Positions 19,921 through 48,980 are shown, counted from the stretch's first letter. The stretch: DNA of 64,000 nucleotides from Kiritimatiellia bacterium (GCA_017527155.1 JAFXQI010000022.1:160-64159), one strand, 5' to 3'. Made by a program: numbers and translations. The notes: generated by a model from the sequence alone, not told the origin.

Positions 19921-19935
19921 GCTGCCCCCCAAGCC

Positions 19936-23513: not shown

Positions 23514-23516
23514 CGC

Positions 23517-23744: not shown

Positions 23745-23763
23745 TCTGCGTGAGCCGCCCCGC

Positions 23764-27994: not shown

Positions 27995-28035
27995 AATCCA
28001 CACATTTCCCCCTTCCCGGCACCATCATCCCCACC

Positions 28036-28173: not shown

Positions 28174-28603
28174 TGTTGATGATCCCGATCTGCACCCCGT
28201 GGAGGCCACCCACGTGGTTGAACAACCCGATCTGCAACCCATCCATCTGCCCCTTCACGATGTTGACCAACCCGAGCTGGAAGCCCGTCGCCGCTTCGTC
28301 GATGTTCACCAGACCCACCTCGAAACCGCAGGACATCACGTCCGAGAGGTTGATCGCGTTCAGCCGGATGCCGCGGATGGTGCCGCCGCCGCCCGCGATG
28401 CCGAGATCGAGGCCGGTCATCTCGATGTTTTCGCTGTACGGCAGATTCAGCCGCAGCCCCACCACCTCGCGGTCGGCCCCGAACAACTGCGCCGAATCCC
28501 CGACGATGCCGATCTGCACGGGCACCGCCGCCGACGCGACCACCGTACCGACCAACGCCATCGCCACCAAGCCCAACCACAAACCCTTTGCCGTCTTCTT
28601 CAT
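28121..28603 (-). CDS. outer-membrane beta-barrel candidate with tandem 8-residue GxQxGxxN repeats
   Basis: Signal peptide (MKKTAKGLWLGLVAMALVGTVVASAAV). Repeats GLQIGLFN/GVQIGIIN/GFQLGLVN/GFEVGLVN. Aromatic C-terminus (SWAF), typical of OMP barrels. Confidence 0.6.
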   Translation of the reverse strand: MKKTAKGLWLGLVAMALVGTVVASAAVPVQIGIVGDSAQLFGADREVVGLRLNLPYSENIEMTGLDLGIAGGGGTIRGIRLNAINLSDVMSCGFEVGLVNIDEAATGFQLGLVNIVKGQMDGLQIGLFNHVGGLHGVQIGIINIIDSGDVKMMPIVSWAF

Positions 28604-28758
28604 GTCATGACCTTTCATTGTTTGCATCGGCACCCCGCCGATTGCCCCCGTACCATACCCATCCCCCCCCCGTGAACGCAACCCCAAACCACCCGCCCGT
28701 CCGCCCGTCCGTCCATCCTCCCTCCCTCTCCCCCTCTCCCGCCCACATCCTCCCTTGA

Positions 28759-28803
28759 CCTCCATTGTCCGCCCCACTCTTGGCCTCCATTGTCCGCCCC
28801 ACT
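28759..28803. repeat. direct 20-bp repeat CCTCCATTGTCCGCCCCACT x2 (5-nt spacer) immediately upstream of the conserved element of paralog B
   Basis: Read directly; abuts the GCGATATCAAGGAA element. Confidence 0.7.
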
Positions 28804-28804
28804 T

Positions 28805-28818
28805 GCGATATCAAGGAA
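28805..28818 (+). promoter_or_regulatory. conserved upstream element GCGATATCAAGGAA (copy 1), 41 nt before the ATGAAA start of paralog B
   Basis: Same 14-mer at 35094 and, inverted, at 29641. Followed by a TTTCC box. Confidence 0.5.
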
Positions 28819-28859
28819 TTCTCTTGCATTTCCTTCCGTTTTCATCCATCATCCCCTCC

Positions 28860-29834
28860 ATGAAAGACGAACCCATCTTCCCCCGCGGCTACCTCAAGGC
28901 CCTCGCCTCCGACTGCTTCGGCCCCTCCTGCAGCCATGCCCCCACGGCCATGCTCCTGCAGACCGTCGGCTCCCTGGCCCTCTTCACCGGCGCCCTCGCC
29001 GCGCACCTCGCCTGGTACGGAGGCAAACGCATCCTCTCCCGCCTCCGCCGCCGCGTCTCCCCGCCAGAACCCGTGCCACCTCCCGCCTCCCAAGCCCCCC
29101 TTTCCCTCCGTGGCATCCCCTCCCCCGGCGACATCGAAGACGTCTGGGACCTCGACCCGCGCACCCTCTGCGGCCGCCTTCGCATCGGCTCCCGCCTGGC
29201 CGACCTCGAACCCACCCTCGACTCCCGGTTCCTCTTCAAGAAGTCCCGCAACGGCTCCCGCCGCATCGTCGCCCGCCAACCGGGTCTCAAAGGCTGGATG
29301 AAAAAGCACGTCCCGTCCATCAAGTATTCCACCGCCATGCACTACAAGAAGCTGGCCACCCGCCTCCGCCAGCTCACCGGCCTCGACCCGCGAATCCCCC
29401 TCGAATGGCTCCTCCCCGACAACCAAGAATCCCTCCCCGCCCTCTCCCCCTCCGACCACCAGACCGTCACCCAGGCCAAGACCCGGCTTGCCCGTCTCCT
29501 CGCCGAGCATCCCAAGGTCACCCACCTGATCCGGGCGGTCGAATCCAAGCTCGGGATCATGCGGATGGTCACGATCCGCCACATCCAGCCCCCTGGGCCG
29601 GGACGCGGGAGGAGACGGAACTCGAAAGAAATCCCCGATAATTCCTTGATATCGCGAGTCTCCCGTGGTGGATGGGCCGTGACGGCGGACGCGGTGCGCA
29701 CGCAGGCTTTCTGGGATGCGATACGGAGGGTACTGGGCGATCCCTCCCCGGATGCCGGGACCCGCCGCCTGCAATCGGACATCCGCGAATGGCTGAACGC
29801 CCCTCTGGAGGCACGCCGGAACCGGCGGCGATAG
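28860..29834 (+). CDS. hypothetical N-terminally anchored Arg-rich protein (paralog B of the 6882-7820 gene)
   Basis: 324 aa. Homologous blocks with paralog A. The conserved upstream element GCGATATCAAGGAA lies 41 nt before its ATGAAA start. Confidence 0.6.
   Translation: MKDEPIFPRGYLKALASDCFGPSCSHAPTAMLLQTVGSLALFTGALAAHLAWYGGKRILSRLRRRVSPPEPVPPPASQAPLSLRGIPSPGDIEDVWDLDPRTLCGRLRIGSRLADLEPTLDSRFLFKKSRNGSRRIVARQPGLKGWMKKHVPSIKYSTAMHYKKLATRLRQLTGLDPRIPLEWLLPDNQESLPALSPSDHQTVTQAKTRLARLLAEHPKVTHLIRAVESKLGIMRMVTIRHIQPPGPGRGRRRNSKEIPDNSLISRVSRGGWAVTADAVRTQAFWDAIRRVLGDPSPDAGTRRLQSDIREWLNAPLEARRNRRR
29641..29655 (-). promoter_or_regulatory. inverted copy of GCGATATCAAGGAAT inside the 3' part of paralog B coding sequence
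   Basis: Reverse complement reads TCGCGATATCAAGGAATTATC, matching the two upstream copies over 15 nt. Confidence 0.3.
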
Positions 29835-29991
29835 AGGTTGGGACGAGATGGCGGGGGATGGGAACGCTCTCCCACCGGATGCCGGCAGGGGAATGTGTGA
29901 ACGGCTGGATGCACAGGAGGGGAATCAGGCCGGAGAAGGGCCGAATGCAGGGTTGCATGGGAAGGGGAAGGGAGGGTATATTGAAGGGGTT

Positions 29992-31485
29992 ATGGCCAAT
30001 GCTTGGGCAACCGGTGTGTGCGTCAGGCCGGACGGGCTGGAATGGACCGTCCTGCGGCGCACGAAGGAGTCGTGGGACGTTCATTCCCGCGGCTCGGCGG
30101 CGTTTGCTCCGGAGGGGGGCGCGGCCGCGGAGGGGGACGGCGGCGAGACGGCCGCGACGCTTCCGCCGCCGGAGCCGGTCGACTCCGCCCACATGGACTG
30201 GGGAAAGTGGACGGCGGAGGCGCTGCGTCCGCACCTGAAGTCGATGAGGGGGAAAATATCCGTCGTCCTGCCGATGGACCAGGCGCTGGTGCGGCTGGAG
30301 ACGTTCCCGTCGGGGGACGCGGAGGAGCTGTACGGGATGGCCGGGCTCCAGACGGACAAGCTCTCGCCCTTCCCGGAGGAGGAGACGGCGACGGGCGTCG
30401 AGACGCTGGAATGCACCGAGGCGGAATCGCTGGTCGCGCTCGCCATCGTGCGCGCGGATGCGGTGGAGAAGGCGGGGGCGCCGTTCCTGGAACTGGGGTC
30501 GTTGCCGGACGCGGTGGACGTGGAGCCGCTGGCGTGGTGGTGGGGCGCGAGGAAGCTGCTGGGCGAGTCGCCGCGCGGTGGGAGGATCGTGCTGCGGGCG
30601 GAGGCGTCGGGGCGCATCGCGATGGCGGTGGCGCACGGGACCCGGCCGATCGCGTTCGGGGCGCTGCCGCCGCTGCCGCCGGAGGGGGCGGACGGGGAGT
30701 GGCTGGAGGAGGCGGCCGAGGAGGTGTCGTATGCGCTGACGTCGCTGGAGAGCGCGTGGGGCGCGGAGGGGGCGCTGAAGATGTCGGTGGTGGCGCCGGA
30801 GGGCGTCGACGTGTCGTGGGCGGCGGGGCTGGCGAAGGCGCTGGGGGCGTCGGCGCCGGAGACGGTGAAGGCGGAGGAGGTTCCGAGCGTGTCGGAGGGG
30901 GCGGCGCGGCGGCTGGCGGAGCCGGCGGAGCCGCTGTGGATGGACCTGGCGCCGGCGGCGTGGCGGGAGGAGGACGAGCGCCGCCGCGGGAACCGGGTGC
31001 TGATGGGGGCGGCGACGGTGTTCGTTGCGCTGTGGCTGCTGGCGCTGGGGGTGTTTTTCACGATGCTGAACGTGCGCCGCGCGCGCCTGTCGGATTTGGA
31101 GGCGAAGGTGGAGGCGGTGGAGAAGCCGGCGGCGGAGGTGCGGCGGCTGAGGGCGAAGGTGATGGACTTCGCGGCCTACGCGGACCGGAGCCGCTCGGCG
31201 CTGGAGTGCCTGCGGGCGATGAGCGAGGCGCTGCCGCCGGGCGTGGAGCTGAACTCGTTCATCTACCGCAAGGGGACGTCGCTGACGCTGCGCGGCGAGG
31301 CGGACGATTCGGAGCGCATCTACGCCTTCACGCGCGGCCTCGACGAGTCGGGGCTGTTCGACGACGTGAAGTCGGACGGCATCAGCATGAAGCCGGGCGC
31401 GGGCGGCGGCGCGGCGAAGTACACCTTCGGCATCACGGCCGCGCTCCCCGGCAACGGCGACGAATCGGAAGGCGGTGCGCCGTGA
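29992..31485 (+). CDS. fused PilM-like / PilN-like pilus (or T2SS) assembly protein
   Basis: N-terminal ~330 aa actin-like PilM-type region. Then a TM helix (VLMGAATVFVALWLLALGVFF), a coiled coil and a PilN-like periplasmic domain (GVELNSFIYRKGTSLTLRGEAD...FTRGLDESGLFDDV). Confidence 0.6.
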   Translation: MANAWATGVCVRPDGLEWTVLRRTKESWDVHSRGSAAFAPEGGAAAEGDGGETAATLPPPEPVDSAHMDWGKWTAEALRPHLKSMRGKISVVLPMDQALVRLETFPSGDAEELYGMAGLQTDKLSPFPEEETATGVETLECTEAESLVALAIVRADAVEKAGAPFLELGSLPDAVDVEPLAWWWGARKLLGESPRGGRIVLRAEASGRIAMAVAHGTRPIAFGALPPLPPEGADGEWLEEAAEEVSYALTSLESAWGAEGALKMSVVAPEGVDVSWAAGLAKALGASAPETVKAEEVPSVSEGAARRLAEPAEPLWMDLAPAAWREEDERRRGNRVLMGAATVFVALWLLALGVFFTMLNVRRARLSDLEAKVEAVEKPAAEVRRLRAKVMDFAAYADRSRSALECLRAMSEALPPGVELNSFIYRKGTSLTLRGEADDSERIYAFTRGLDESGLFDDVKSDGISMKPGAGGGAAKYTFGITAALPGNGDESEGGAP

Positions 31486-31487
31486 AG

Positions 31488-32054
31488 ATGGCCCCCCGCG
31501 AACGCAATCTCCTTTTCGCGACGCTGGCGGTAGCGCTGCTGGCGGGCACGTGGGCGTTCCTGGCGCCGCAGCGCGCGGAGTGGAAGGACTACCGCGACCG
31601 CCGCGACGACCTGGACGACCGCCTGGCGAAGGCGGAGCGCATGCTCGGCCAGCAGGCGGACGTGGAGACGCGCCTGGCGGAGTTCCGCAAGGGCGTGCCG
31701 GTGTTCGCCGAAGGCAAGCGCGCGGAAGCGGAGCTGCTGCCGGAGGTGGACCGCATGGCGAGCCGCCACGGCCTGGCGCTGGTGCGGCGGTCGGCGTCGG
31801 ACAAGGAGCGCGAGGCGGGCGACCTCTACGAGACGACGCTGACCTGCGAGTGGGAGGGGACGCTGGACGCGCTGGTGCATTTCCTCTACGACCAGCAGTC
31901 GCAGGGCGTGGTGTCGGACATCCGGCAGCTGCGCATCCAGCCGCAGACGGGCGCGAAGCTCGGCACCCTCAAGGGCGGCTTCGAGATGGACTGCGCCTAC
32001 CGCCGCGAGGCCGCAGGCGGCGGCGCCGAAGCCGGCGGGGAGGCCGCCGAATGA
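31488..32054 (+). CDS. PilO/GspM-like pilus assembly protein
   Basis: N-terminal TM helix (LLFATLAVALLAGTWAF), coiled coil, C-terminal PilO-like domain. Start overlaps the stop of the PilMN-like gene (GTGAAGATG). Confidence 0.55.
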   Translation: MAPRERNLLFATLAVALLAGTWAFLAPQRAEWKDYRDRRDDLDDRLAKAERMLGQQADVETRLAEFRKGVPVFAEGKRAEAELLPEVDRMASRHGLALVRRSASDKEREAGDLYETTLTCEWEGTLDALVHFLYDQQSQGVVSDIRQLRIQPQTGAKLGTLKGGFEMDCAYRREAAGGGAEAGGEAAE

Positions 32055-32092
32055 CCGCCCGGCGCACAACCGACCCCGGACGCGGGAAATCC

Positions 32093-32134
32093 CGATTGCA
32101 GTCGATTGCAATCGATTGCAGTCGAATGCAATCG
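32093..32134. repeat. four tandem 10-mers CGATTGCAGT/CGATTGCAAT/CGATTGCAGT/CGAATGCAAT, 56 nt upstream of the secretin start
   Basis: Read directly from the sequence; 10-bp (one helical turn) periodicity. Confidence 0.8.
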
Positions 32135-32189
32135 AAAAACCCGCCCGGGCCGCAAGGAGACGTTTGACCACAACGACGGAGTCGAGAGC

Positions 32190-35048
32190 ATGAACCACGC
32201 GAAGCACCATCCCTCCCTCTGGCAGCGGGGCCTGTCGGCCCTGCTCGCGGTGGCGTTCGCCGCCGCGGAACTCGCCCCCGCGGCCGCCTACGCCCAGGGC
32301 GACGAAACGCGCGCACGGGTGCGGCGCCTGCGCGAACTCAACGAGGCGCGCCAGCGCGCCGCCGCCGCCGCGCCCGTGCCCGGCGACGCGGACGCCGCCG
32401 CCGATGACGCCGCGCCCTCCGCGCCCGCGCCGCGCTCCTTCCCCTCCGCGCGCGACCCCGCCGCCGGCGCCGACGCGGGCGACGAGGACAGCATCTGGCA
32501 GTTCAACCTCGTCAAGGACGCCCCCCTCGACGCGCTCCTCGACATGTATTCGCAGGTCACCGGCCGCACCATGATCAAGGCGCCCGGCGTCAACGCCACC
32601 TTCCCCAACATCAAGGTCAAGGAGAAGCTCACCAAGTCCGAGATGCTCCAGGTCATGGACAGCCTGCTTTCCATGAACAACATCTCGCTCGTGCCGCTGG
32701 GGACGCGGTTCTACCGGGTCGTGCAGATCGACAAGGCGTCCACCGAGGGCATGTCCATCCAGACCGAGGTCCCCGAGGGCGGCTACCCCGAGAGCGACGC
32801 GCTGGTCAGCCAGCTGATCCGCCTGAAGTACCTCGGGATGGAGGACGCCAACAACATCGTCGGCGCCATGCTCCACGGCTACGGGAAGGTCCAGCGGCTC
32901 GACCGCATCAACAGCCTCCTCGTCCTCGAAACCTCCACCAACCTGCGCCGCATCAACGACATCCTGGAGATGGTGGACCAGCCGACCGAGCTCAACGTCG
33001 AGACCAGCGTCTACGTCATCCGCCACGCCAAGGCCGCCGACATCGCCGCCCGCCTCAACGAACTCGCCAGCGACAGCGAGCAGAAGGAAGAAGTCGCGCG
33101 CGTCGCCGAGCCCCGTTTTCCCCGCCGTCCCCCCAGCATGATGCGCGCCCGCCAGCCCGCCGCCGCCGCCGAGGACGCCGCCCAGCCCAGCGCCGCCTCC
33201 ACCGCCGCCACCGCCGCCGAGAAGGGCATCATCCAGGGCAAGGTCAAGATCCTCACCGACGAGCGGACCAACATCATCATCGTCATCACCAACCCCGTCA
33301 ACCTCCCCTTCTTCAACATGATCGTCAACGCCCTGGACGTCTCCGTCGATCCCGAAGTCGAGGTGCAGGTCGTCAACCTCGAATTCGCCGACGCCGAGGA
33401 AATGGCGTCGCTGCTCAACAACTTCATCGGCGCCTCCTCCTCGTCCAGCGATTCAAGCAACGTCCCCGGCGGCGGCCGCTCCACCGCCAGCGGCGACGAC
33501 TCGCGCGCGCAGGCCCTGGAGAATTTCGTCCGCGCCCGCGCCAGCGCCGCCGACCGCAACGCCGCCAAGGAAGCCGTTGCCAAGATCGGGCAGCTCTCCA
33601 GCGACACCAAGATTCTCGCCGACACCCGCACCAACACCATCCTGCTCATGGGCACCAAGGGCGACATCGCGGCGCTGCTCGAAGTCATCAAGAAAGTCGA
33701 CATCATGCTCGCGCAGGTCCTCATCGAGGCCGTCATCCTCGAAGTCAACCTCCACAACGACTCCTCCTACGGCATCAGCTGGCTCCAGAAATCCATGACC
33801 GCGTACAACGCCAAGAACGTCAACGGCATCTCCGTCAAGAACCCCGTCGTCTCATGGGGCGGCTCGTTCGGGGGGAACAACTTCGGGACCGTGGCGGGCG
33901 ACACCGTCAGCCGCGCGTTCGCGGGAGGCACGGGACTGAGCTACTTCTTCACCTTCACCGACCTCAACATGGACGCCGTCCTCGACATGGTCGCCTCCAG
34001 CGGCGAAGGGCGCGTGCTGGCGACGCCGGTCATCCTGACCACCGACAACACCGAAGCCTCCATCATCTCCGGCCAGAGCGTGCCCATCCGGACGGGCGAC
34101 TCCAGCTACTCCTCCGGCACCTACTACGGCACCTACGAATACAAGGACGTCGGCATCGAGCTGAAGGTCAAGCCGCGCATCAACCCGTCCCGCTACGTCA
34201 CGCTCGAGATTTCGCAGTCCGCCAACACCCTCGGCGACCAGACCGACGTCGGCAACGGCTCGACCATGTACAAGATCAACAAGCGCGAACTGACCGCGTC
34301 CATTTCCCTCCCGTCGCGATCCACCATCGTGCTGGGCGGCCTCGTCGAGACCGACTACTCCTCCAGCGAAAGCCACATCCCGATCCTCGGGAGCATCCCG
34401 ATCATCGGCGCCCTCTTCCGCAACGAAAACAAGACCCGCCAGCGCACCGAGCTGCTGGTCCTCATCACCCCGTACGTCCTGATGACCCCCGAAGAAGCCC
34501 GTGCCGAGACCGAGCGCCTCCACCGCGCCTCCAACGTCGCGGCCGAGGACTGGTACCGCGGCTGGTCCGACTCCTCCCTCGCCCCCTTCTCCCCCGCCAA
34601 ACTCAAGGAAATGCGCAAGAAGGAAAAGGCCAAGCAGGAAGGCATCACCCTCCGCACCCTTGATGACGCCCCCGCCGCGACCGGCATTGGCCGTGCAACC
34701 GCCCCCGGTAGCACCGGCGCCCCCGTCGGCATCATCCCCTCCAGCCTCTTCCCGGACGCCCCCGGCGCGGCCGACCTTCCCGACCTCGCCCCCGAGGACG
34801 GCGACACCCCGCTTCCCGCCCCCGAATCCCCGGCGACCGACGCCCCCTTCACCTTCGATGCCGCCGCGGCGGCCGCCTTCGCGACCCCCGCCGACGAGGA
34901 CGCCCTCCCGCCCGCGGACCCGTCCGATTCCCCGGATTCCGACGACGCCCCCTCCGCCGTCGCCCCCCGCCGCAGCCTCTTCGGCCGCCGTTCCACCCCC
35001 GACCCCGAGCCCAAACCCAGCATGTTCCCCGCCCCCGACGCGGAGTGA
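32190..35048 (+). CDS. type II/IV secretion system secretin (GspD/PilQ family)
   Basis: Signal peptide. N0/N1-like domains and a conserved secretin C-domain (VPILGSIPIIGALFRNENKTRQRTELLVLITPYVL). Long Pro/Ala/Asp-rich C-terminal tail. Confidence 0.85.
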   Translation: MNHAKHHPSLWQRGLSALLAVAFAAAELAPAAAYAQGDETRARVRRLRELNEARQRAAAAAPVPGDADAAADDAAPSAPAPRSFPSARDPAAGADAGDEDSIWQFNLVKDAPLDALLDMYSQVTGRTMIKAPGVNATFPNIKVKEKLTKSEMLQVMDSLLSMNNISLVPLGTRFYRVVQIDKASTEGMSIQTEVPEGGYPESDALVSQLIRLKYLGMEDANNIVGAMLHGYGKVQRLDRINSLLVLETSTNLRRINDILEMVDQPTELNVETSVYVIRHAKAADIAARLNELASDSEQKEEVARVAEPRFPRRPPSMMRARQPAAAAEDAAQPSAASTAATAAEKGIIQGKVKILTDERTNIIIVITNPVNLPFFNMIVNALDVSVDPEVEVQVVNLEFADAEEMASLLNNFIGASSSSSDSSNVPGGGRSTASGDDSRAQALENFVRARASAADRNAAKEAVAKIGQLSSDTKILADTRTNTILLMGTKGDIAALLEVIKKVDIMLAQVLIEAVILEVNLHNDSSYGISWLQKSMTAYNAKNVNGISVKNPVVSWGGSFGGNNFGTVAGDTVSRAFAGGTGLSYFFTFTDLNMDAVLDMVASSGEGRVLATPVILTTDNTEASIISGQSVPIRTGDSSYSSGTYYGTYEYKDVGIELKVKPRINPSRYVTLEISQSANTLGDQTDVGNGSTMYKINKRELTASISLPSRSTIVLGGLVETDYSSSESHIPILGSIPIIGALFRNENKTRQRTELLVLITPYVLMTPEEARAETERLHRASNVAAEDWYRGWSDSSLAPFSPAKLKEMRKKEKAKQEGITLRTLDDAPAATGIGRATAPGSTGAPVGIIPSSLFPDAPGAADLPDLAPEDGDTPLPAPESPATDAPFTFDAAAAAAFATPADEDALPPADPSDSPDSDDAPSAVAPRRSLFGRRSTPDPEPKPSMFPAPDAE

Positions 35049-35093
35049 TCTTCCCCCTCCCCCACCCCATTCCCGCTTCCCTTCCGGCCATTC

Positions 35094-35107
35094 GCGATAT
35101 CAAGGAA
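35094..35107 (+). promoter_or_regulatory. conserved upstream element GCGATATCAAGGAA (copy 2), 41 nt before the ATGAAA start of the transglutaminase-like gene
   Basis: Exact 14-mer repeat. Immediately followed by a perfect hairpin with a T-run. Confidence 0.5.
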
Positions 35108-35132
35108 AAACCGAACCTTTCATTCGGTTTTT
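35106..35132. terminator. perfect hairpin AAAAACCGAA-CCTTTCA-TTCGGTTTTT (secretin terminator and/or 5'-leader attenuator of the next gene)
   Basis: 10-bp stem including A/T runs on both sides. Sits between the conserved upstream element and the ATG at 35149. Confidence 0.55.
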
Positions 35133-35148
35133 CCCCCAACCTCCCCCC

Positions 35149-36987
35149 ATGAAAACCCACCGCCCGGCACCCGCCCCCGGGCTCGAGTTTTCGGCTGGCG
35201 GAGAGAAGGGTGGACGCGGTAGCATGTACGGCATGAACCCCATCCCCCCCGACTACATCCCCGTCCCCTCCTCCCTCATGGAGGAGTACTCCTCCGCCGC
35301 GACGCTCTCCGACATGGAGATATTCATCTTTCCCCGCCTGCTCTATCCCCTGGTCCTGGCAAACATGATGTCCCCGGCCCTCTGGCGCTGGCGCGACGAC
35401 CCGTGGTTCGCGAACTCGGCCCGCCTCAGCCCCTACCGCCGCATCCTGCGCCTCAAGCAGTTCATCATGGACCACTACACCTTCAACCTCGACCTCGAAA
35501 CCTGGGGCCTGACCACCCAGCGCCGCGAGCTCGACCGCTTCGCGCGCTACATGCCGCCCGAGACGATCGCGCGCTCCAACGCCCTCTTCGGCTACCACGG
35601 CGACCGCTTCTACTTCGACCTCGACATCCGCCGCCACTTCGGCCTCGACAAATACTCCGGCGACACCATCCCCTACTGGAAGACCGAGACCCTCGAAGCC
35701 ATGGACGCCTTCCGCCACCGCCCCGGACACGCCACCGGCGCCGGCGAATGCGTCTCCCTCTCGACCCTCTACGCCGCGGCCCTGCACGTCCACGCCGGCA
35801 TCCCGCTCGACGACATCTACCTCCTCGCCACGCCCCTGCACTCCCAGAACTTCGTCGACCTCGGCGACGGCATCCTGACCAACAACCGGCGTCTCGTGAC
35901 GAAGGCCATGTGGTACAACGGCACCGCCCTGAGCGCGAAGGCCCGCCGCGCCCTCGAGCACGAACGCCTGACCATCGTCTCGCACCTCACCGGCCACATC
36001 CACACCGTCTATCCCGAAGCGACCATCTCCCCCGACGCCTACGCCCGCTTCCAATTCCGCCTCCGCGCCTTCGCCGCGACCGACCCCACCGCCGAAATCC
36101 TCTGCAACTTCCTCCGCCAGGCCCCGCACCGGCAGCCGTGCTTCCAGATCGAGGCGACCATCAACGGCAAACCCCGCTGGCTGCCCGCCGAGAAAGCCTA
36201 CGCCTTCGAGAACTCCGGCTCCTACAAAGTCTCCGACTCCACCCGCGACCGGCTCCTGGCGGGCATCGACGAAGACGAATTCTTCGCCGCGCCCATCCCC
36301 GACCGCATCCCCCTCAACCGCTTCGACGCCTTCTTCCGCAACCACCCCGTGCGGCTCGACGACCCGGCCGACCGCCAGGCCCTCGCGCGCGAATTCGACT
36401 GCTTCCGCACCGGCGTCTGCGAGATCGCCGACGAACTGGCCGCCTTCTGCCGCCTCGAACCCCGATGGCCCGACGCCGACGGTCCCGCCAAGACCTTCGT
36501 TCCCTCGCCGGCCCTCCGCATCCCCGAAGGCCCCGACTTCACCCGCGAAGCCCTCGTCGAGGCCCTCGCCGCACAGCGCCGGACCAACCCCGTCGCCGAC
36601 CTCGCCTTCTACGTCTGGCGCGACCTCTCCCGTACCGACCCGCGCCCCTTCCTGAAGGCGGCCGTCGAGCGCTCCCCCGTCTGCGACGAAGCCACCCGCG
36701 CCGTCGCCACCGGAGACCTCCCCGCGCTGGTCCGCGACCTCCCCGACGAATCCATCTACGGCGAAGGCCCCCGCGCGGCCCAACCCGACGAAGTCTGGAA
36801 CTCCCGCCGCGGCGACGGCCTCGAAAAAGCCGTCCTGCTGGCCGCCCTCCTGCACGCCCGCGCTCCCGGCGAAGCGCTGTCGCTCGAATCGGACGGCCGC
36901 ACCGCCCGCCTCCGCTTCGGCACCCAAGACCACCTCTTCCCCACCACCAACCCGGCGGTTCTCGAAGCGGCCTACGACCCCGCCTAG
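35149..36987 (+). CDS. transglutaminase-like (Cys-His-Asp) domain protein
   Basis: 612 aa. Core GAGECVSLSTLYAAALHVHAGIPLDD...LHSQNFVDLGDG matches the transglutaminase-like cysteine-peptidase fold pattern (C ... H-x-x-F/W-V-E/D ... D). The conserved upstream element lies 41 nt before the start. Confidence 0.5.
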   Translation: MKTHRPAPAPGLEFSAGGEKGGRGSMYGMNPIPPDYIPVPSSLMEEYSSAATLSDMEIFIFPRLLYPLVLANMMSPALWRWRDDPWFANSARLSPYRRILRLKQFIMDHYTFNLDLETWGLTTQRRELDRFARYMPPETIARSNALFGYHGDRFYFDLDIRRHFGLDKYSGDTIPYWKTETLEAMDAFRHRPGHATGAGECVSLSTLYAAALHVHAGIPLDDIYLLATPLHSQNFVDLGDGILTNNRRLVTKAMWYNGTALSAKARRALEHERLTIVSHLTGHIHTVYPEATISPDAYARFQFRLRAFAATDPTAEILCNFLRQAPHRQPCFQIEATINGKPRWLPAEKAYAFENSGSYKVSDSTRDRLLAGIDEDEFFAAPIPDRIPLNRFDAFFRNHPVRLDDPADRQALAREFDCFRTGVCEIADELAAFCRLEPRWPDADGPAKTFVPSPALRIPEGPDFTREALVEALAAQRRTNPVADLAFYVWRDLSRTDPRPFLKAAVERSPVCDEATRAVATGDLPALVRDLPDESIYGEGPRAAQPDEVWNSRRGDGLEKAVLLAALLHARAPGEALSLESDGRTARLRFGTQDHLFPTTNPAVLEAAYDPA

Positions 36988-37244
36988 CGCGGTCCAAGAA
37001 ACAGTCGGCCCTCCATCCATCGTCCCGCCGGGCATTTTCCACCGCGGACGCGCAGAAGCGCGTCCCTCCCCGTGGCGCGCCCGGCAGGAGGGTCGCGCTT
37101 TCGCGCGACCATGCATCCGGAATGCCGCAGGACCATCGGCTGGGTGTCTGCGGGCGGAAGAACGGCGGCGTCCCAAATGGCCGAAAAGGCGTGCAATCGG
37201 GTCGTGGACGGGATAGGATGGACGCAAACCAACTTGGAGTAACC

Positions 37245-40200
37245 ATGAGCTTGGACAAAAACGCCAACGAAATCGTCGATACGCCCCTCCGCGGGCGGTG
37301 GTGGATCTCGGCCGCGCTGGCCGCGGGCGCGCTCGGACTGTACCTCGCGACGCTCAGCCGGGGCGTGTTCCCCGGGATGCCGGCGAAGAACCTGGTATGG
37401 CACCTGCATCTGGACGCGTTTCCGACGCTGCTCGACCCGGTATGGGGCTGGCTCGTCCGCCAGTGCGGCCGCTTCGGCGGCGAGGCGCTCGGCTCCGCCG
37501 TGCTGAGCGCGGTCTGCGGCGCGCTGTGCGTGTTCTTCCTCTCCGCGCTGATGATGCGCGTGCGCTACACGGTCCACGAAAAGGAAGACCCCGGCGAGGT
37601 CGCCCGCGAGGAACAGGCCCGCCGCCTGGCCGGCATCGTGTCGGGCATCGCGCTGGCGGTGAGCGTCCCCTTCTGGGTCCACGCGACGCGCTCGATGCCG
37701 GGTACCTTCCACCTGCTGCTGCTGCTCGCGGCGACCTGGCTCTTCTCGGAGTACCAGCGCGAAGGCAAGACCGGAACCCTCTACTGGTTCGGTTTCGTCT
37801 ACGGCATCGGCATCCCCGAGTTCGCGACGTTCATCCTCTTCGCGCCGCTGGCGGCCATCCTCGTCGCCCGCGCGATGCTCCAGCGGGCCTCGTTCCGGTG
37901 GAGCACGATGGTCGGCACGGCCCTCTGCGCGCTGCCGCCGATGATCATCCTCTACATCCTCAACGGGAGCTTCCTCTGGAACACGGATCCGTCCATCCCG
38001 CTGCATCCGCTCTGCCCGTCGCTGCCGGCGGTGATCTGGCGGATGATGGTGGACCAGTGGCGCCTGATCGCGGGCGCGCCGATGATGATCCTGCTGTTCG
38101 CGATGACGGCGCTTCCCTGGATGATCCTCTACCTGATCCGCAGCAAGAAGGCGGCCTGGCGCTACAACGCCTGGCAAACGCTCCTGCGCCTCGCGGTGCT
38201 GGCGGCGGCCTGCGCGGCCATCTTCAACACGGCCTTCTCCCCGTGGCACTTCTTCGGCATGGCGTTCCCGCTGGTGACCCCGTACCTGATCCTGGCCATC
38301 TGCGCCGGCACGGTCGCGGGCGAATTCTGGGTGATGGGCCAGTCGCGCGACCACAAGGCGGTGGGGATCGGCCAGCCGCTGCGCAAGGTGTGCGGGACCA
38401 TCGCGCTGCTGCTGCCGGCGGCGTTCGCCGTCGCGGGCGTGCTGAACGCGAAGGTCGCCGACGGCCGCGCCGGCACCAAGATCGCCGCCCTCCTGGACCA
38501 GACGGTCGAGTCGCTCGCCGACCACGACCTCGTCCTCTCGACGGGCGTGCTGGACGACGCCCTCCGCGTGGCGGCGCACGAGCACGGCGCGAAGCTGCGG
38601 GTGATATCGATGCCCGCGGCGGGCACGGAAACCTACCTGAAGTTCCTCTCCGAGACGGCCTTCAAGGAACCGCGCCAGCGCGCCCTCCTGCAAGTGGGCT
38701 TCGGCGCGTTCATCCAGGACTACCTGGCGAACGACGCGCACCTCATCAAGACCGCCGCGATCGACTCCGCCGACCTCCTCCGCGAGTTCGGCTACCTCGT
38801 CCCCGACGGCCTGGTCTCGACCGCCGTCCCCACCCCCGACCGCGCCGACTGGAACGTCGTGCTCGGCGAGCGCCTCCCGGCCTTCCGCGGCCAGATGGAG
38901 GCCCTCCAGGCGGACGCCGCCGACCCGCGCAACCCCATCCGCCCCTACGAACAGTACGTCCTGCGCCTTGCGTCGAAGACCTTCAACAACGTCGGCTTCG
39001 CGCGCGTCGAAGCCGGCGACAAGGAAGGCGCGGTCCCCTACTTCGAGACCGCCCGCGCCCTCTATCCCGACAACATCTCCGCCCTTCTCAACCTCCTCAC
39101 CCTCGCGCGCGACGCCAAGTCCCCCTCCCTCGAACCCCTCGAAGCCGACTGGAAGGCCCTCGTCGACCGCGGCCTGAACAACCGCGTCATGCAGTCCCTC
39201 GGCCACCTCTACGGCTACGTCTACAACACCGGCTACCTCGTCCGCAACGGCATGATGTGGGCCGTCTCCGGCCGCCCGAGGATGGCCGAAGCCGAACTCC
39301 GCCGCGCCGCCGGCGGCCAGTCCGTCGATCCCGCCGCCAAGGCGTTCCTCGCCCGCGCGTTCCTTGCCACCGGCGATCGCGAGACCAGCGCCCAGTACTT
39401 CCGCGAAGCCCTCGAAAACAAGCCCGGCGACCCCTCCGTCCGCCTCAAGCTCGCCGAAATCGCGATGTCCGAGGGCGACCTCGACGCCGCGCGGGAGCAG
39501 CTCGACGCCCTCGCCGCCGACGGCGTCCCCGCGGAAGCGCTCGCCTTCGACCGCATCGTGATGCAGTACCTCGGCGGCGACGCCGACGGCGCCGTCCTGG
39601 CCCTCAAGGAGCGTACCGCGAAGCACAAGCAGGACGTCCGCGCCTGGTCCTTCCTCGCCTACCTCACCGGCGACGGTTCCGATCCCGAGACCTACGAGCG
39701 CGCCCTCAAGGCCATCAAGTCCCTCCGCGGCGCCTCCCCCGAGACGCGCCTGCTCCTCGCCGAACTCTATTCCAAGCGCCACGAATGGGGCGACGCCCGC
39801 GCCGAACTCGAACAGGTCCTCCGCCTGAACCCCCGCCTCGTCAAGGCGTGGGAGATGCTGGTCGCCGTCGACTTCGGCGAACGCAAGCGCGACCTGGCCG
39901 AAGACCACGTCCGCGCCCTCCTGACGCTCGATCCGTCGAACCACGAAGGCAACCTCATGCTCGGCTCCTTCCAGTACGAGCGCGGCCAGTATTCCCTCGC
40001 CGCCGCCTCCTACCGAACCGCCCTCGAAGCCAAGCGCACCCCCACCTGCCTCAACGACCTCGCGTACATCCTCATCGGCGAAGGCAGCTACGCCGAAGCC
40101 GAGTCCCTCATCGACGAAGCCTGCGCCATGAAGCCCGACGACCCGCTCCTCCTCTCCACCCGCGGCGAACTCTACCTCCGCACCGGCCGTCTCGACGAAG

Positions 40201-40397
40201 CCGAAACCGACATCCAGCAGGTCCTCTCCGTCCTTCCCGACAACCTCCAGATGCAGCTTCTCGCCGCCGAACTCTACCACGCCCGCGGCCAGGACCCCGC
40301 CGCCCGCCAGATCCTCGACACCCTCCGCGGCCGCGTCCACGAGTTTCCCGCCGACCTCCAGGCCCGTCTCCAGGACCTCCTCCGCGACGTCCCGTGA
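37245..40397 (+). CDS. polytopic membrane protein with C-terminal TPR repeats (GT-C-fold / DUF2723-TMEM260-like, paralog 1 of 3)
   Basis: 1050 aa. About 11 TM helices in the first ~480 aa, then ~550 aa of TPR repeats (many A-x-x-Y / L-x-x-A periodicities). N-terminal block LYLATLSRGVFPG resembles the DUF2723 start. Confidence 0.5.
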   Translation: MSLDKNANEIVDTPLRGRWWISAALAAGALGLYLATLSRGVFPGMPAKNLVWHLHLDAFPTLLDPVWGWLVRQCGRFGGEALGSAVLSAVCGALCVFFLSALMMRVRYTVHEKEDPGEVAREEQARRLAGIVSGIALAVSVPFWVHATRSMPGTFHLLLLLAATWLFSEYQREGKTGTLYWFGFVYGIGIPEFATFILFAPLAAILVARAMLQRASFRWSTMVGTALCALPPMIILYILNGSFLWNTDPSIPLHPLCPSLPAVIWRMMVDQWRLIAGAPMMILLFAMTALPWMILYLIRSKKAAWRYNAWQTLLRLAVLAAACAAIFNTAFSPWHFFGMAFPLVTPYLILAICAGTVAGEFWVMGQSRDHKAVGIGQPLRKVCGTIALLLPAAFAVAGVLNAKVADGRAGTKIAALLDQTVESLADHDLVLSTGVLDDALRVAAHEHGAKLRVISMPAAGTETYLKFLSETAFKEPRQRALLQVGFGAFIQDYLANDAHLIKTAAIDSADLLREFGYLVPDGLVSTAVPTPDRADWNVVLGERLPAFRGQMEALQADAADPRNPIRPYEQYVLRLASKTFNNVGFARVEAGDKEGAVPYFETARALYPDNISALLNLLTLARDAKSPSLEPLEADWKALVDRGLNNRVMQSLGHLYGYVYNTGYLVRNGMMWAVSGRPRMAEAELRRAAGGQSVDPAAKAFLARAFLATGDRETSAQYFREALENKPGDPSVRLKLAEIAMSEGDLDAAREQLDALAADGVPAEALAFDRIVMQYLGGDADGAVLALKERTAKHKQDVRAWSFLAYLTGDGSDPETYERALKAIKSLRGASPETRLLLAELYSKRHEWGDARAELEQVLRLNPRLVKAWEMLVAVDFGERKRDLAEDHVRALLTLDPSNHEGNLMLGSFQYERGQYSLAAASYRTALEAKRTPTCLNDLAYILIGEGSYAEAESLIDEACAMKPDDPLLLSTRGELYLRTGRLDEAETDIQQVLSVLPDNLQMQLLAAELYHARGQDPAARQILDTLRGRVHEFPADLQARLQDLLRDVP

Positions 40398-40431
40398 TCC
40401 GACCGCCCGCCTCCGACGCCCGCTCCGCCGC

Positions 40432-40471
40432 CGATTGCCGTCGATTGCCCTCGATTGCAGTCGGTTGCAGC
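40432..40471. repeat. four tandem 10-mers CGATTGCCGT/CGATTGCCCT/CGATTGCAGT/CGGTTGCAGC, 25 nt upstream of TPR-membrane paralog 2
   Basis: Same CGATTGCNNT family as 32093-32134, again x4 with 10-bp phase. Confidence 0.8.
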
Positions 40472-40495
40472 CGCTTTCCCCGGAAGGCTCCCTGA

Positions 40496-43400
40496 ATGCC
40501 CGTCGGCGCATCCAGCCCCATTCCCATCCCCCGCCAGCCGCCCCCTCCCCCGCCGCCGGTGACGGGGTGGCGCCGGTTGCTGGTGCCCGCGGCGTTCTTC
40601 CTCCTCGCCCTCGTGCTATACGGCACCCTCGTCGGCGCCGCCCCCTTCCCCGGCGCCCCGGCGCACGCGCTGGTGGACGCCCTCCGGCTCGACGGACCCG
40701 GCGTATCCTCGGCGCCCGTCTGGGAAACCCTGGTCCGCCTTTCCGCCCGCGCCGGTCTCCCGCCCGCCGCGGCGATGAACGTCTTCAGCCTCTTCTGCGG
40801 CGCGCTCGGCATCGCGATCCTCGTCTGGCTCGTGCTCCAGATGCCCTACCGCACGGTCCCCGGCGCCATGGCCGCGGACGTGGTCCGCGAGCGCCAGGCG
40901 CGCGTCTTCGCCGCCGTCTCCACCGGCCTCTACCTCCTCGCCAGCACCCCCTGGGCCCTCGCCTCCACCCGCTCCCTGCCGCAGACCTTCCACCTGCTGG
41001 TCTTCGGCATCGCCCTCTGGCTCCTCGCGCGCCACGCCCAGACGGGACGCGACCGCTGGCTCTTCGCGCTGGGCGGCTGGCTCGCGGCGGGCTCGCTGGA
41101 GTACCCGTTCTTCTGGCCGCTGCTGCTGCTCATGCCCATCGCCGTCGCGGTGTCGCTCTTCCACAACGGCCGACTCGGCAGCGGACGCTCCTGGCTCCTC
41201 TGGCTGCTCGGGCTTCTCCTCGGCGCCTCGGCCTACGTCCTGCACGCCTGGCATCTCATCCGTTCCGGCCACGCCACCTCCGCCTCCCTCGGCGGCACGC
41301 TTCTCGCGGTCCTGGCGAACCGCGCCGAAGTCTTCCTCCCCTACCGCCATCCCGGCCTCCTCTCCGCCTTCGCCCTTGCGTGGGTGCCGGTGCTGGTCCT
41401 CTTCCTCGGTTCCCGCCGCAGCCCGTGGTACTACGGCAAGGACCAGATGTTCCTGCGCCTCGTCCTCGCGGTCCTGGCGGTGGCGTGGCTCCCGGCGGAA
41501 CTGGCCCTCCTCATGCGCATCACCCGCACCGTCTTCGTCGCGCTGCTCCCTGACGCCGCGCTCGCGGTGGCCGTCGGCTGCATCGCCGGCGAATTCTGGA
41601 TCCACGGCCAGCGCCAGCTCGACGACAACGAATGGCCGCGCCGCTTCTACCGCGGATTCCACTCCGCCCTCGCCTGGGTCCTTCCCGTCGCCCTCGCCGG
41701 CGTCGTCTTCTGGCAGCGTCCCGTCGCCGACGCGCGCCCCGCGTCGATCGTCTACGGTACCGCCCGCACCCTTCTCTCGCGCATGGCCCCCGGCGACCGC
41801 ATCGCGGAATTCGGTTCCATCCCGATTCCCGGCGACGGCGGCATGGCAGACCTCCTGCGTCTGGCGAACCTGCATCCTGACCTCATGCGCGGGCAAGCGG
41901 AACACCCGTGCTGCGGCGGCCGCGTCCTGGTCTTCGACTGGTCCCGCCTGGCCGATCCCTCCTACTTCCTCTGGGCGCGCGCCCGCTGGACCGACCCCGT
42001 CCCCGCCGCCGACGCCGCCACCCCCACCCTCTTCTCCAACCACATCCTCCGCCAGATGGCGGCCGACCCGCCGCCCCCCGGCGCCCACGACACCGTCTTC
42101 CTCGTCCCGCCCCCCACCCCGCTCCCCGGCATCCGCCTCGTCCCCGACGGCTGGCTCTACCGCCCCGTGCCATCCCCCACCCCGTGGTCCCCCGTGCCCC
42201 TTCCCCCCGACCCCACCCCCTTCTGGGACGTCCTCGCGCGCGCCGCCGACCGCTTCCCGTCCGACCGCAATCCAGCCGCCCAGCTCTTCCGCAGCTTCCT
42301 CGCGCTGATCTCCCGCAACGCCGACGCCTACGGCGTCCTCCTCGCCGAATCCGGCGACCCCGCCGCCGCCGACCGCGTCTTCGGGGCCGGACTCGCCCTG
42401 TCCCCCGACAACCTCAGCCTGCTCGCCAACCGCATCCCGCCCGACGCCCTGACGCCGATTCCCGCGACCCTCCCCGCCGGCGCCGATTCCCTCCAGACCG
42501 CCATGTACGACCGCGAAGGCCGCCTCTGGGGCCTCGATCTCCTCTACGGCCCCATCCTCGACCCCGAAACCCGCGCCACGCATCCCGACTGGCTCTTCGT
42601 CTGCTCCGGCATCCCGCCCGACCGCCTCTCCGCCCTCTCCCCCGGCGCCCCGCCGCCCGACGACCCCCTCCCGCCCGACGTATGGGAGCGCATCTTCCGC
42701 CACGCCCTCGCCCCCGCGCCGACCTTCCCCGCCGTCTTCTCCCGCCTCCGCACCGACCCGCGCGACTCCGACGCCCTCCTCGCGCTCCTGCGCCTCTTCA
42801 TCCTGCACCACCGTCCCGAACTCGCCGCTTCCACCCTCACCCACCTCGTGCGCATCGGCTTCGACGAAGAACTCCTCCAGCCCGAGATCGCCTGCATCGA
42901 GCGCCTGCGAGGCAACATCGGCGGCTCCGTCGAACACGCCCGCCGCCACCTCGCCAACACCCCGTCCGACATCTCCGGATGGCTCGCCATCCTCTGCTGG
43001 ACCGCGCCCCCCGATCCCCTCTTCGCGCAAGCCGTCCAGATCCTCCAGGAGCGCGCCGGACACGACCGCGAAATCCGCCTCGCCCTCGGCCTGCGCTACT
43101 GCGAACTCCACGACTGGCCCAACGCCCTCGACCAATACAACCGCGCCCTCCAGCTCCGCTCCGCCCCGCCCATCCTCCTGCGGCTGATCACCCTCTCGCG
43201 CATCCTGCAGGACGGTTCCATCGGCACCCTCCGCGCCTCCCTCCGCCGCACCGCCCCCGACCATCCCATCTTCCGCGCCTCCCTCACCCGGCGGCCCGAA
43301 GACCCCGAAACCGCCGCCCGCACCGTCCGCGACCTCCGCGAACTCGCCCGCGCCACCCGCAATCCCGAATTGCTAAACGCCGTCTGCGAGTCCATACTGT

Positions 43401-43750
43401 ATGTTTCGGGTTCGGAAGACCCCGAGATGCGCGGCTGGATGCACCAGGCCATCCACGCGCAGCCCTGGAACCCCGTCTTCCACTGCACCCTCACCGAAAT
43501 GCTGATGCTCGCCGGAGAACTGAAGGAAGCCGCCGAAGAGGCCCGCCGGTCCGTCGCCTACGCGCCGGACTTCGCCCCCGCGTGGGTGCTTTCCGGCGAA
43601 CTCTTCCGCCGCGCCGGCAAGCTCGACCAGGCCCGCCGCTGCCTCCGCCGCGCCGAAGTCCTCCCCCAGGGCGCCCTCTCCCCCACCCAGCACGAATGCC
43701 TCTCCACCCTCCGCTCCGCCCTCGCCGCCCTCCCGGAGCCCGCCCCATGA
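40496..43750 (+). CDS. polytopic membrane protein with C-terminal TPR repeats (paralog 2 of 3)
   Basis: 1084 aa. Same architecture and alignable N-terminal blocks (LVLYGTLVGAAPFPG; SLPQTFHLLVFG) as paralogs 1 and 3. Confidence 0.5.
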   Translation: MPVGASSPIPIPRQPPPPPPPVTGWRRLLVPAAFFLLALVLYGTLVGAAPFPGAPAHALVDALRLDGPGVSSAPVWETLVRLSARAGLPPAAAMNVFSLFCGALGIAILVWLVLQMPYRTVPGAMAADVVRERQARVFAAVSTGLYLLASTPWALASTRSLPQTFHLLVFGIALWLLARHAQTGRDRWLFALGGWLAAGSLEYPFFWPLLLLMPIAVAVSLFHNGRLGSGRSWLLWLLGLLLGASAYVLHAWHLIRSGHATSASLGGTLLAVLANRAEVFLPYRHPGLLSAFALAWVPVLVLFLGSRRSPWYYGKDQMFLRLVLAVLAVAWLPAELALLMRITRTVFVALLPDAALAVAVGCIAGEFWIHGQRQLDDNEWPRRFYRGFHSALAWVLPVALAGVVFWQRPVADARPASIVYGTARTLLSRMAPGDRIAEFGSIPIPGDGGMADLLRLANLHPDLMRGQAEHPCCGGRVLVFDWSRLADPSYFLWARARWTDPVPAADAATPTLFSNHILRQMAADPPPPGAHDTVFLVPPPTPLPGIRLVPDGWLYRPVPSPTPWSPVPLPPDPTPFWDVLARAADRFPSDRNPAAQLFRSFLALISRNADAYGVLLAESGDPAAADRVFGAGLALSPDNLSLLANRIPPDALTPIPATLPAGADSLQTAMYDREGRLWGLDLLYGPILDPETRATHPDWLFVCSGIPPDRLSALSPGAPPPDDPLPPDVWERIFRHALAPAPTFPAVFSRLRTDPRDSDALLALLRLFILHHRPELAASTLTHLVRIGFDEELLQPEIACIERLRGNIGGSVEHARRHLANTPSDISGWLAILCWTAPPDPLFAQAVQILQERAGHDREIRLALGLRYCELHDWPNALDQYNRALQLRSAPPILLRLITLSRILQDGSIGTLRASLRRTAPDHPIFRASLTRRPEDPETAARTVRDLRELARATRNPELLNAVCESILYVSGSEDPEMRGWMHQAIHAQPWNPVFHCTLTEMLMLAGELKEAAEEARRSVAYAPDFAPAWVLSGELFRRAGKLDQARRCLRRAEVLPQGALSPTQHECLSTLRSALAALPEPAP

Positions 43751-43822
43751 CCGCCCGCTTGCCCCATCCCGGCATCGCATCCGCGCATTCCCTCCTGCAC
43801 GGCCTGGAAATCCCATGCTCTA

Positions 43823-43844
43823 GGCGGGCAGGGGACTGCCCGCC
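43823..43844. terminator. GC hairpin (GGCGGGCAG-GGGA-CTGCCCGCC) downstream of TPR-membrane paralog 2, nested in a larger GCCCTACCC/GGGTAGGGC inverted repeat
   Basis: 9-bp stem, no T-run, so it may be a structural/REP-like element rather than a terminator. Confidence 0.3.
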
Positions 43845-44025
43845 CTACCCCGGGACGCTCCCCCTGCGCAGAGGGCGGGTAGGGCGGCGAGTCCCCTCCC
43901 CGCCGCGCAAACGCCTGGCACCTCCTGGCCAATGGGATTCGCGGATGCGTCCTCCGCGTCCGTCCCCTCTCCGTCGTCCGTATCCGCTCAGCGGTTCCCG
44001 GGTTTTCCATGTAAATAATCCGCAT

Positions 44026-44055
44026 CTTGTCACTTGTCACTTGTCACTTGTCACT
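44026..44055. repeat. four tandem heptamers CTTGTCA, ending 18 nt upstream of the TPR-membrane paralog 3 start
   Basis: CTTGTCACTTGTCACTTGTCACTTGTCACT read directly. Confidence 0.8.
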
Positions 44056-44072
44056 CCCTTCTCCTCTCGCCC

Positions 44073-47420: not shown

Positions 47421-48980
<1,560 letters not shown>

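Follow-up and report, generated by a model that had tools for sequence, protein, structure and literature searches.

Decamer arrays at the secretin and TPR paralog genes

The window analysed here is a 64,000-nt stretch of a rumen Kiritimatiellae metagenome-assembled genome (MAG) with a G+C content of 69%. Nine plus-strand genes form a single run in this window (28860-48980), encoding in order a hypothetical protein, a PilM/N-like protein, a PilO-like protein, a secretin, another hypothetical protein, three TPR/TMEM260-like paralogs and enolase. Two spacers of this run contain short tandem arrays of a 10-bp unit with the core CGATTGC, referred to below as decamer arrays. Array 1 (32092-32135) lies between the PilO/T2SS-M-like gene (31488-32054, plus strand) and the GspD-type secretin gene (32190-35048, plus strand), with the PilO-like stop codon 37 nt upstream and the secretin ATG 55 nt downstream. 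It consists of four decamers of the form (C/T)CGATTGC-AR (in order C-CGATTGC-AG, T-CGATTGC-AA, T-CGATTGC-AG and T-CGAATGC-AA) and a terminal TCGA. Array 2 (40431-40470, plus strand) lies between TPR/TMEM260-like membrane protein paralog 1 (37245-40397, plus strand) and paralog 2 (40496-43750, plus strand), with the paralog 1 stop codon 33 nt upstream and the paralog 2 ATG 25 nt downstream. Its four decamers have the form (C/T)CGATTGC-NR and the last has the core CGGTTGC (in order C-CGATTGC-CG, T-CGATTGC-CC, T-CGATTGC-AG and T-CGGTTGC-AG).

Both arrays were read directly from the sequence and were also recovered by Tandem Repeats Finder (period 10; 4.3 copies and score 65 for array 1, 4.2 copies and score 56 for array 2). 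A two-unit pattern allowing up to three mismatches has nine matches in the window, all within the two arrays, compared with 0.58 expected; none of 100 shuffled sequences reached nine. The arrays are thus far beyond chance, and with their common core and 10-bp period they represent one sequence family. In these respects the original prediction, which described two sets of four head-to-tail 10-mers of one family, is borne out; of its distances to the start codons, the 25 nt given for array 2 agrees with the 24-25 nt found, but the 56 nt given for array 1 is 1 nt too long. Lone copies of CGATTGC outside the arrays are not enriched in the window (14 found, 12.1 expected), and a DNA uptake sequence, considered in view of the nearby ComEC and secretin genes, was rejected on this ground.

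The flanking genes are also as predicted. The secretin has the Pfam domains Secretin, Secretin_N and GspD N0 (Secretin/Secretin_N E-value: 4e-46), and a homolog with 94% identity carries the NCBI name GspD. The proteins on either side of array 2 are TPR proteins with TMEM260-like N-termini, identified by Pfam matches (with a gene call for paralog 1). The PilO-like gene is based on a gene call in a nearly identical contig (L001) and has a weak T2SSM match.

The spacers vary inside each array (AG and AA in array 1; CG, CC and AG in array 2). Array 1 is a near-perfect palindrome, TCGATTGCAATCGA, with the same reading on either strand, while array 2 is oriented and has the sense-strand form TCGATTGC. 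Stable RNA hairpins are predicted for array 1 (-27 kcal/mol, z -6.2) and for the array 2 region (-30.3 kcal/mol, z -3.7).

Extent and anatomy of the array family

A pattern of three perfect cores spaced 10 bp apart was searched for in one genome per species. It matches at least 114 loci, compared with 0.27 expected by chance, and these include the secretin locus of the species representative RGIG6903 (L036). The following counts of carriers, flanking bases and spacers refer to the matches listed. Fifty-eight loci are of the Planctomycetes-Verrucomicrobia-Chlamydiae (PVC) type. The carriers are Kiritimatiellae, Lentisphaeria, Oligosphaera ethanolica DSM 24202, Victivallales, Opitutaceae and MAGs labelled 'Verrucomicrobia', and one Lentisphaeria MAG alone supplies 16 contigs. 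The base before the core, which was left free in the search, is T in 72-96% of PVC units compared with 24% in other phyla. The spacer ends in a purine in approximately 80-90% of units in most PVC groups and in 71% in the 'Verrucomicrobia'-labelled group. Because of this preceding T and the variable spacer with its purine end, the unit can be written as T-CGATTGC-N-R. Viral contigs gave seven hits but none is of this type, and a phage origin was rejected.

Spacers differ inside 62 of the 72 PVC arrays and inside 19 of the 56 arrays from elsewhere; the non-PVC matches are mostly perfect microsatellites, with identical spacers in 37 of the 56. These perfect 10-bp CGATTGC microsatellites of unrelated phyla, and the runs of identical units seen in Oligosphaera ethanolica (where arrays have 15-23 units), would fit a neutral origin by slippage, independently at each site and with no common origin or reader. 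In the PVC arrays, however, variation is found in the spacers but the flanking T and the core are retained. In addition, one and the same core recurs in different classes of one phylum, and the copy number is equal in four assemblies of the window lineage. The combination of identical units with copy-number differences between close strains that marks slippage or phase variation was not found, and neutral slippage is an exceedingly unlikely explanation.

The family can be summarized as having a fixed 10-bp period, a conserved 8-bp core and a variable 2-bp spacer, with array lengths of 27-130 bp. The degenerate form is (GCNNTCGANN)n, and degenerate members retain only GC..TCGA. The skeleton TCGA-NN-GC-NN is dyad-symmetric, such that orientation is set solely by which gap has TT or AA. 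As a result of this symmetry, most copies fold into single-strand hairpins; z < -2 was obtained for the CGAUUGC strand of 39 of 53 short arrays. A full-text literature search found no description of the decamer arrays or of the gene-array link discussed below, and a search with the raw motif returned primers only.

Location of the arrays

Genes in the fetched loci were called crudely, as open reading frames (ORFs) based on G+C content at third codon positions. In the Kiritimatiellae and the 'Verrucomicrobia' MAGs, arrays of 3-5 units typically fill the spacers of co-directional genes. The sense strand of these short arrays carries GCAATCGA, and their end, which abuts an AAAGGA-like Shine-Dalgarno sequence, is 5-26 nt from the following ATG. 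The genes downstream are mutually unrelated: in the relatives they encode GroES, a short-chain dehydrogenase (SDR), a DHDPS-family enzyme, an oxaloacetate decarboxylase beta subunit, GH123 and GH39-like enzymes, a YscJ/FliF lipoprotein and secreted proteins without known function. With orientation scored on the TT/AA gaps, GCAATCGA is on the sense strand in 28 cases and on the opposite strand in 13 (approximately 2:1, p 0.03). This bias is real but not strict, and array 2 of the window has the minority orientation.

Such positions raise the question of whether the arrays are selected as RNA elements in mRNA leaders and intercistronic spacers. They could form hairpins that protect the 3' end of the upstream cistron, act as processing sites or bind a protein beside the ribosome-binding site, and the long arrays found elsewhere could be decoys for such an RNA-binding protein. 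The location of many copies at AAAGGA, shortly before an ATG and in spacers too short for a terminator and a promoter, is consistent with this explanation, as are the sense-strand bias, the stable folds (on the CGAUUGC strand, U would have a pairing partner in the purine preferred in the spacer, G or A) and the lack of promoters in the window spacers. However, the strand with the more stable fold (CGAUUGC) is the minority sense orientation, arrays are also found in convergent and divergent regions and inside ORFs, and no Rfam family corresponds to them. RNA-leader function is the main live rival to the reading preferred below, although we consider it rather unlikely.

Outside these spacers, arrays occur in 3' regions as well as in the convergent and divergent regions. 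In Lentisphaeria, arrays on 8 contigs of one MAG have conserved flanks resembling those of miniature inverted-repeat transposable elements (MITEs), and a higher-order repeat consisting of a 37-bp spacer and 5-8 units occurs five times. GTAG-headed hairpins resembling repetitive extragenic palindromic (REP) sequences adjoin arrays in Lentisphaeria and Oligosphaera loci.

Nine of the 72 arrays of related genomes among the matches listed are in frame within ORFs that are coding-like on both sides. In a conserved protein, comparison with the array-free ortholog places an insertion of 13 or 23 aa exactly at the array. Pfam matches run unbroken across the array in a class I tRNA synthetase (tRNA-synt_1; isoleucyl type by its motifs), in the GATase_2 domain of GltB and in a rhamnosidase. 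The in-frame hosts are the tRNA synthetase of L025, GltB of L048 and L082, the rhamnosidase of L009, a glycyl-radical enzyme of L081 and L105, and an ORF of L113; the peptides that the arrays add to these enzymes include ASDCNRLQSAAID. None of the reading frames of the unit contains a stop codon, so ORFs are lengthened by arrays and gene callers can be misled.

The window sites in related genomes

Two contigs in ENA match the window almost base for base. Array 1 is identical in RGIG6903 (L118), but the whole 30000-34600 segment is approximately 99% identical there, and purifying selection on the array was rejected for this reason. Upstream of a secretin with 88% identity a single unit-like palindrome is left (ttcgattgaatcga), while a secretin with 73% identity has no array upstream and a spacer of 9 nt. 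Four independent assemblies (the window, L001, L002 and L117/L118) have the same copy number of four units.

The similarity between the window and L118 extends at approximately 99% identity from the pilM/N-like gene to 34600 and then falls to 57-84% in the 3' end of the secretin gene, in what looks like a recombination breakpoint. Beyond the secretin, gene order in L118 differs, with a 2509-aa protein in place of the TPR triplet; the TPR paralog 2 of RGIG6903 is 70% identical and is located elsewhere in that genome.

The three TPR paralogs are a conserved triplet, in which paralog 2 overlaps or abuts paralog 1 in relatives. Array 2 is missing from three orthologous paralog 1-2 junctions. In RGIG6903 the two genes overlap (ATGA). 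A relative with 67% identity has a REP-like hairpin in the spacer, and in a relative with 89% identity (L121 9780-9990) the spacer contains the 19-bp palindrome TTTTCCAATCATTGGAAAA in five spaced copies, together with an inserted DUF559 gene. Three of three relatives have overlapping paralogs 2 and 3, compared with a spacer of 322 nt in the window. As the relatives have overlapping or array-free junctions, the spacers and arrays were added to the operon in the window lineage, and the window copies are recent and local. The L121 junction also has REP-like hairpins (CCCCCCTC..GAGGGGGG), and similar G/C-rich hairpins are found in the window at 43830-43900.

Comparison with regulatory operators

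In the original prediction, all units lie on one face of the DNA and form operators for cooperative binding of a response regulator or a nucleoid-type regulator, through which the secretin and TPR paralog 2 would be controlled together within a surface-structure regulon. The exact 10-bp period, the conserved core with its variable spacer, the presence of four units at both sites and the location of both upstream of genes for envelope-related proteins are in keeping with this interpretation. Operators of this anatomy are well established. PhoB/OmpR boxes have a period of approximately 10-11 bp, with direct repeats about one helical turn apart, a conserved part of 6-7 bp (7 bp in these boxes) and a variable spacer, all of which are matched by the arrays. 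Ribbon-helix-helix (RHH) proteins read tandem operators such as the MetJ metboxes (8 bp, 2-5 copies), the omega heptads (7-10 copies) and the 10-11-bp iterons of ParR/parC; like the arrays, these are short head-to-tail units in two to ten copies, typically four, and in such operators each unit is read by one protein, cooperatively.

The resemblance does not extend to the setting of the arrays. Pho boxes replace the -35 element and lie 10 bp upstream of the -10 element, but no sigma-70-like promoter was found in 31800-32400, in 40200-40700 or in the plus-strand spacers of 28000-47999. The 25 nt between array 2 and the paralog 2 ATG leave no room for a -10 element, a start site and a leader, and arrays of the family in general reach within 5-55 nt of start codons. 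The original prediction suggested looking nearby for OmpR/NarL-type regulators, but the Pfam scan found no regulator domain of this or any other type, and no RHH domain, among 30 window proteins. Unlike RHH operators, the arrays have no RHH gene or promoter at the window sites and exist in hundreds of copies, some of them in genes. Neither a coherent gene set nor conservation at orthologous promoters, as expected of a dedicated regulon, was observed: the same arrays precede unrelated genes and sit in coding regions, and the orthologous junctions lack them. The family is not tied to surface-structure genes and its two window sites are not conserved. A dedicated regulon is therefore highly improbable. 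The prediction had named as its counter-case random GC-rich microsatellites that are frequent throughout the genome; the arrays are essentially frequent in this sense, but they form a conserved family and not random microsatellites. There is very little doubt that the window arrays are members of this family and do not mark a regulon.

Other regulatory identities were also considered and rejected. The arrays do not provide sigma-70 promoters (with TTGCAA as -35 and GCAATC as -10), as no combination fits by eye and the promoter scan finds none. TGCAATCGATTGCA fits the LacI-family operator TGNAANCGNTTNCA, but only in the palindromic variant with AA spacers; most members have no AA half and the match is regarded as a coincidence. 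The consensus sequences of sigma-54, sigma-28, IHF, Fur and DnaA sites and of parS were compared, and none fits. No plus-strand terminator was found in the window spacers. Rfam contains no family matching the window; the sole hit, isrG, scores 16 bits against a gathering score of 100 and is due to chance.

A candidate reader of the arrays

The conservation of the core at a fixed period implies a sequence-specific reader, and judged by its anatomy the family is what a periodically binding protein would read. A gene for the same protein of approximately 250 aa is found in four array-selected loci from different classes. This protein matches the NCBIfam 'four helix bundle suffix domain' (TIGR04258) and Zn_ribbon_Top1, and these only. 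Its AlphaFold model (pLDDT 84.6) is a helical bundle whose best matches among solved structures are 2gsc and 2rld, of the PF05635 family. A published analysis relates PF05635 to Avd, the accessory protein of diversity-generating retroelements.

Eighty metagenome loci (L124-L203) were fetched by similarity to this bundle/Zn-ribbon protein alone and searched for arrays (period 7-10, at least 2.8 copies). Arrays lie within 300 nt of the gene in 59 of the 80 loci. Their density is 2.45 per kb upstream and 2.88 per kb downstream of the gene, compared with 0.29 per kb further away. After removal of CGATTGC-rich loci, 14 of 27 adjacent spacers bear arrays compared with 11 of 55 others (odds ratio 4.3, p 0.005). 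In 38 of the 59 loci the arrays have TCGA units that recur every 9 or 10 nt and are separated by variable spacers; the units are lineage-specific (TCGAGGGAA, NNNATCGAC, TCGAGAGCCC, TCGACTTAAA and TCGATTGCAA). Examples of arrays bracketing the gene are those at 3905-3945 and 4766-4812 of L204 (gene 4001-4756) and at 801-844 and 1673-1716 of L150. In rumen lineages, arrays are also found within a linker of the gene (2-13 units) and at its 3' end. In the nearest relative of the window, the gene (encoding P0136) is on the contig of the secretin ortholog, approximately 10.5 kb away and 113 nt downstream of smc, with TCGATTGC arrays 18 nt after the smc stop codon and 12 nt after the P0136 stop codon.

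The bundle/Zn-ribbon protein is the best candidate reader of the arrays, and we propose it tentatively. It is likewise possible, though the odds are against it, that TCGA-core arrays of 9- or 10-nt period and the protein gene that they bracket make up an undescribed repeat-and-reader system, of which the window arrays would be satellite sites. Such a system may take either of two forms: a self-propagating element like the REPtrons described below but lacking their HUH transposase, which could place arrays in spacers and, in frame, in essential genes, or a lattice of nucleic-acid binding across the genome, which would tune expression beside ribosome-binding sites.

In a DNA version of the lattice, the arrays would be bound, along the chromosome, by an abundant protein that is nucleoid-associated or organises the chromosome. 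This protein, for which the bundle/Zn-ribbon protein is a possible candidate, would affect many genes without forming a regulon. The periods of 9-10 bp, which match the helical repeat, the invariant TCGA and variable spacers across lineages, the arrays on either side of the candidate gene and the position of that gene downstream of smc all point in this direction. However, adjacency to smc is limited to the window lineage, and conserved linkage to smc was rejected accordingly. The Zn ribbon is of a type known from single-strand DNA binding in topoisomerase I, and the 7-bp families at the same positions do not fit one face of the DNA. A global DNA lattice is improbable as the explanation of the arrays.

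Dispersed repeats and the origin of the window arrays

The arrays belong among the dispersed repeat families of bacteria, a kind that is already known. Among the closest parallels are REP sequences and bacterial interspersed mosaic elements (BIMEs), together with the REPtrons, in which REP sequences accompany a REP-associated tyrosine transposase (RAYT). These are short, hairpin-forming, lineage-specific repeats, dispersed in intergenic and intercistronic spacers and often clustered, and REPtrons include a specific gene flanked by its own repeats. The arrays likewise are dispersed intergenic imperfect palindromes that fold as single strands. In contrast, they are tandem decamers with an 8-bp core and no GTAG, while REP sequences are single 20-40-nt palindromes with a GTAG head, and the bracketed gene encodes a four-helix-bundle/Zn-ribbon protein (PF05635-like fold) instead of a RAYT, which is an HUH tyrosine transposase (Y1).

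Rickettsia palindromic elements (RPEs) are selfish DNA found in frame inside protein-coding genes. Like the arrays, RPEs are palindromic repeats located both between genes and in frame in conserved, even essential genes, to which they add a surface peptide. In-frame copies in conserved genes, missing from orthologs, are found in the related genomes and not in the window. RPEs differ from the arrays in being single units of 100-150 bp in Rickettsia, as opposed to arrays of 27-130 bp built of 10-bp units in Verrucomicrobiota. The short tandemly repeated repetitive (STRR) sequences of cyanobacteria are heptamers. We know of no gene association or in-frame copies described for STRR sequences. They share with the arrays a very short tandem unit, present in few to many copies and dispersed in non-coding DNA (the window also has 7- and 8-bp families), but they differ in phylum, unit length and sequence. 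STRR sequences are mentioned in PMC2670836 and PMC7593598.

The window arrays are two copies of a dispersed, hairpin-forming decamer-array family, (T-CGATTGC-N-R)n, of Kiritimatiellae and related Verrucomicrobiota. Our preferred reading, to which we assign a probability of about 0.6, is that a self-propagating repeat inserted at both sites and expanded locally, as with REP sequences and RPEs, and that the arrays are not operators that evolved for the secretin and paralog 2. A self-propagating repeat explains the in-frame copies, the MITE-like flanks and the pattern of presence and absence, and an insertional or selfish origin is probable. If the arrays at 32092 and 40431 have a local effect, a hairpin or a bound lattice in the intercistronic RNA or DNA would most likely uncouple the neighbouring cistrons. 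Any such effect on the secretin and paralog 2 is likely to be incidental.

Several points weigh against this reading. No target-site duplication, transposase or DNA-level pair of empty and filled sites was found for the window sites. As all four assemblies of the lineage have four units, there is no sign of ongoing expansion, and nothing about selection follows from array 1 being identical in the window and L118. The proximity to start codons and the strand bias suggest that a local function is selected at many sites; a purely selfish model gives no reason to expect this. With respect to the reader, the bundle/Zn-ribbon gene is outside the 64-kb window, 21 of the 80 homolog loci have no array, and the same genomes hold other array families with no tie to the gene. 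The link between protein and arrays is an association and not proof.

Other tandem repeats

Additional short tandem arrays were noted in the window. A 7-bp array, (CTTGTCA)x4.3 with 100% matches (44026-44055), lies in the 322-nt spacer between paralogs 2 and 3, 17 nt before the paralog 3 ATG (44073); the relatives have overlapping genes there. The same heptamer family is found as (AGTGACA)n and (AGTGACG)n on both sides of a DUF6364/PIN cassette (L119 1481-1511 and 2514-2544). Upstream of dnaJ, (CCTAGAWA)x4.6 (19935-19971) has the palindromic centre CTAGATATCTAGATATCTAG and ends 18 nt before the ATG (19990). This array folds as a hairpin (-9.9 kcal/mol, z -3.8) and resembles a row of 8-bp palindromic boxes. 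A third array, (CTCCCGT)x4.1 (47576-47604), is directly upstream of TTGACA-17 nt-TACTCT, approximately 95 nt before the enolase ATG (47700); this promoter-like pair was identified by eye only and is under the threshold of the scan tool.

The convergent spacer of the YbbR-like and Exo_endo_phos genes (23514-23763) contains mirrored arrays of 8-mers (ACGCAGAG and GCGGAGGC on the left, CCTCCGCG and CCTCTGCG on the right) that could form one long hairpin. A divergent spacer (28754-28803) contains two tandem copies of the 25-bp unit CTTGACCTCCATTGTCCGCCCCACT. The motif GCGATATCAAGGAA is present at 28805, after the 25-bp repeat, and at 35093, downstream of the secretin gene, in each case upstream of a hypothetical gene. 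On the minus strand, 49265-64000 is one ORF of more than 4900 codons that continues past the end of the window.

A second family, of octamer arrays (GGTTGAAA / TTTCAACC)n, is present in several Kiritimatiellae and 'Verrucomicrobia' MAGs: L060 (357-392, 1340-1381 and 3268-3292), L066 (2348-2458), L081 (4892-4937), L105 (1814-1856 and 7340-7381), L089 (7280-7315) and L048 (907-944). In L060 an octamer array directly borders a GCAATCGA array, with a terminator-like hairpin on one side and a start codon on the other.

Implications

Kiritimatiellae, Lentisphaeria and their relatives are abundant glycan degraders of the gut, rumen and sediment, with almost no genetics. For these organisms, the present analysis removes a tempting false lead, as common upstream arrays do not define a secretin/TPR regulon. 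The decamer-array family is a sizeable unannotated share of genome architecture: it lies beside ribosome-binding sites, splits genes that formerly overlapped and is in frame in a tRNA synthetase and a glutamate synthase. Gene calling, MAG assembly and the inference of promoters and regulons will all be affected by such arrays. If the link to the bundle/Zn-ribbon protein is true, a widespread subfamily of the PF05635/Avd-like proteins, which are poorly understood, would gain its first function open to testing, and the spread of short repeats in bacteria would have a new model.

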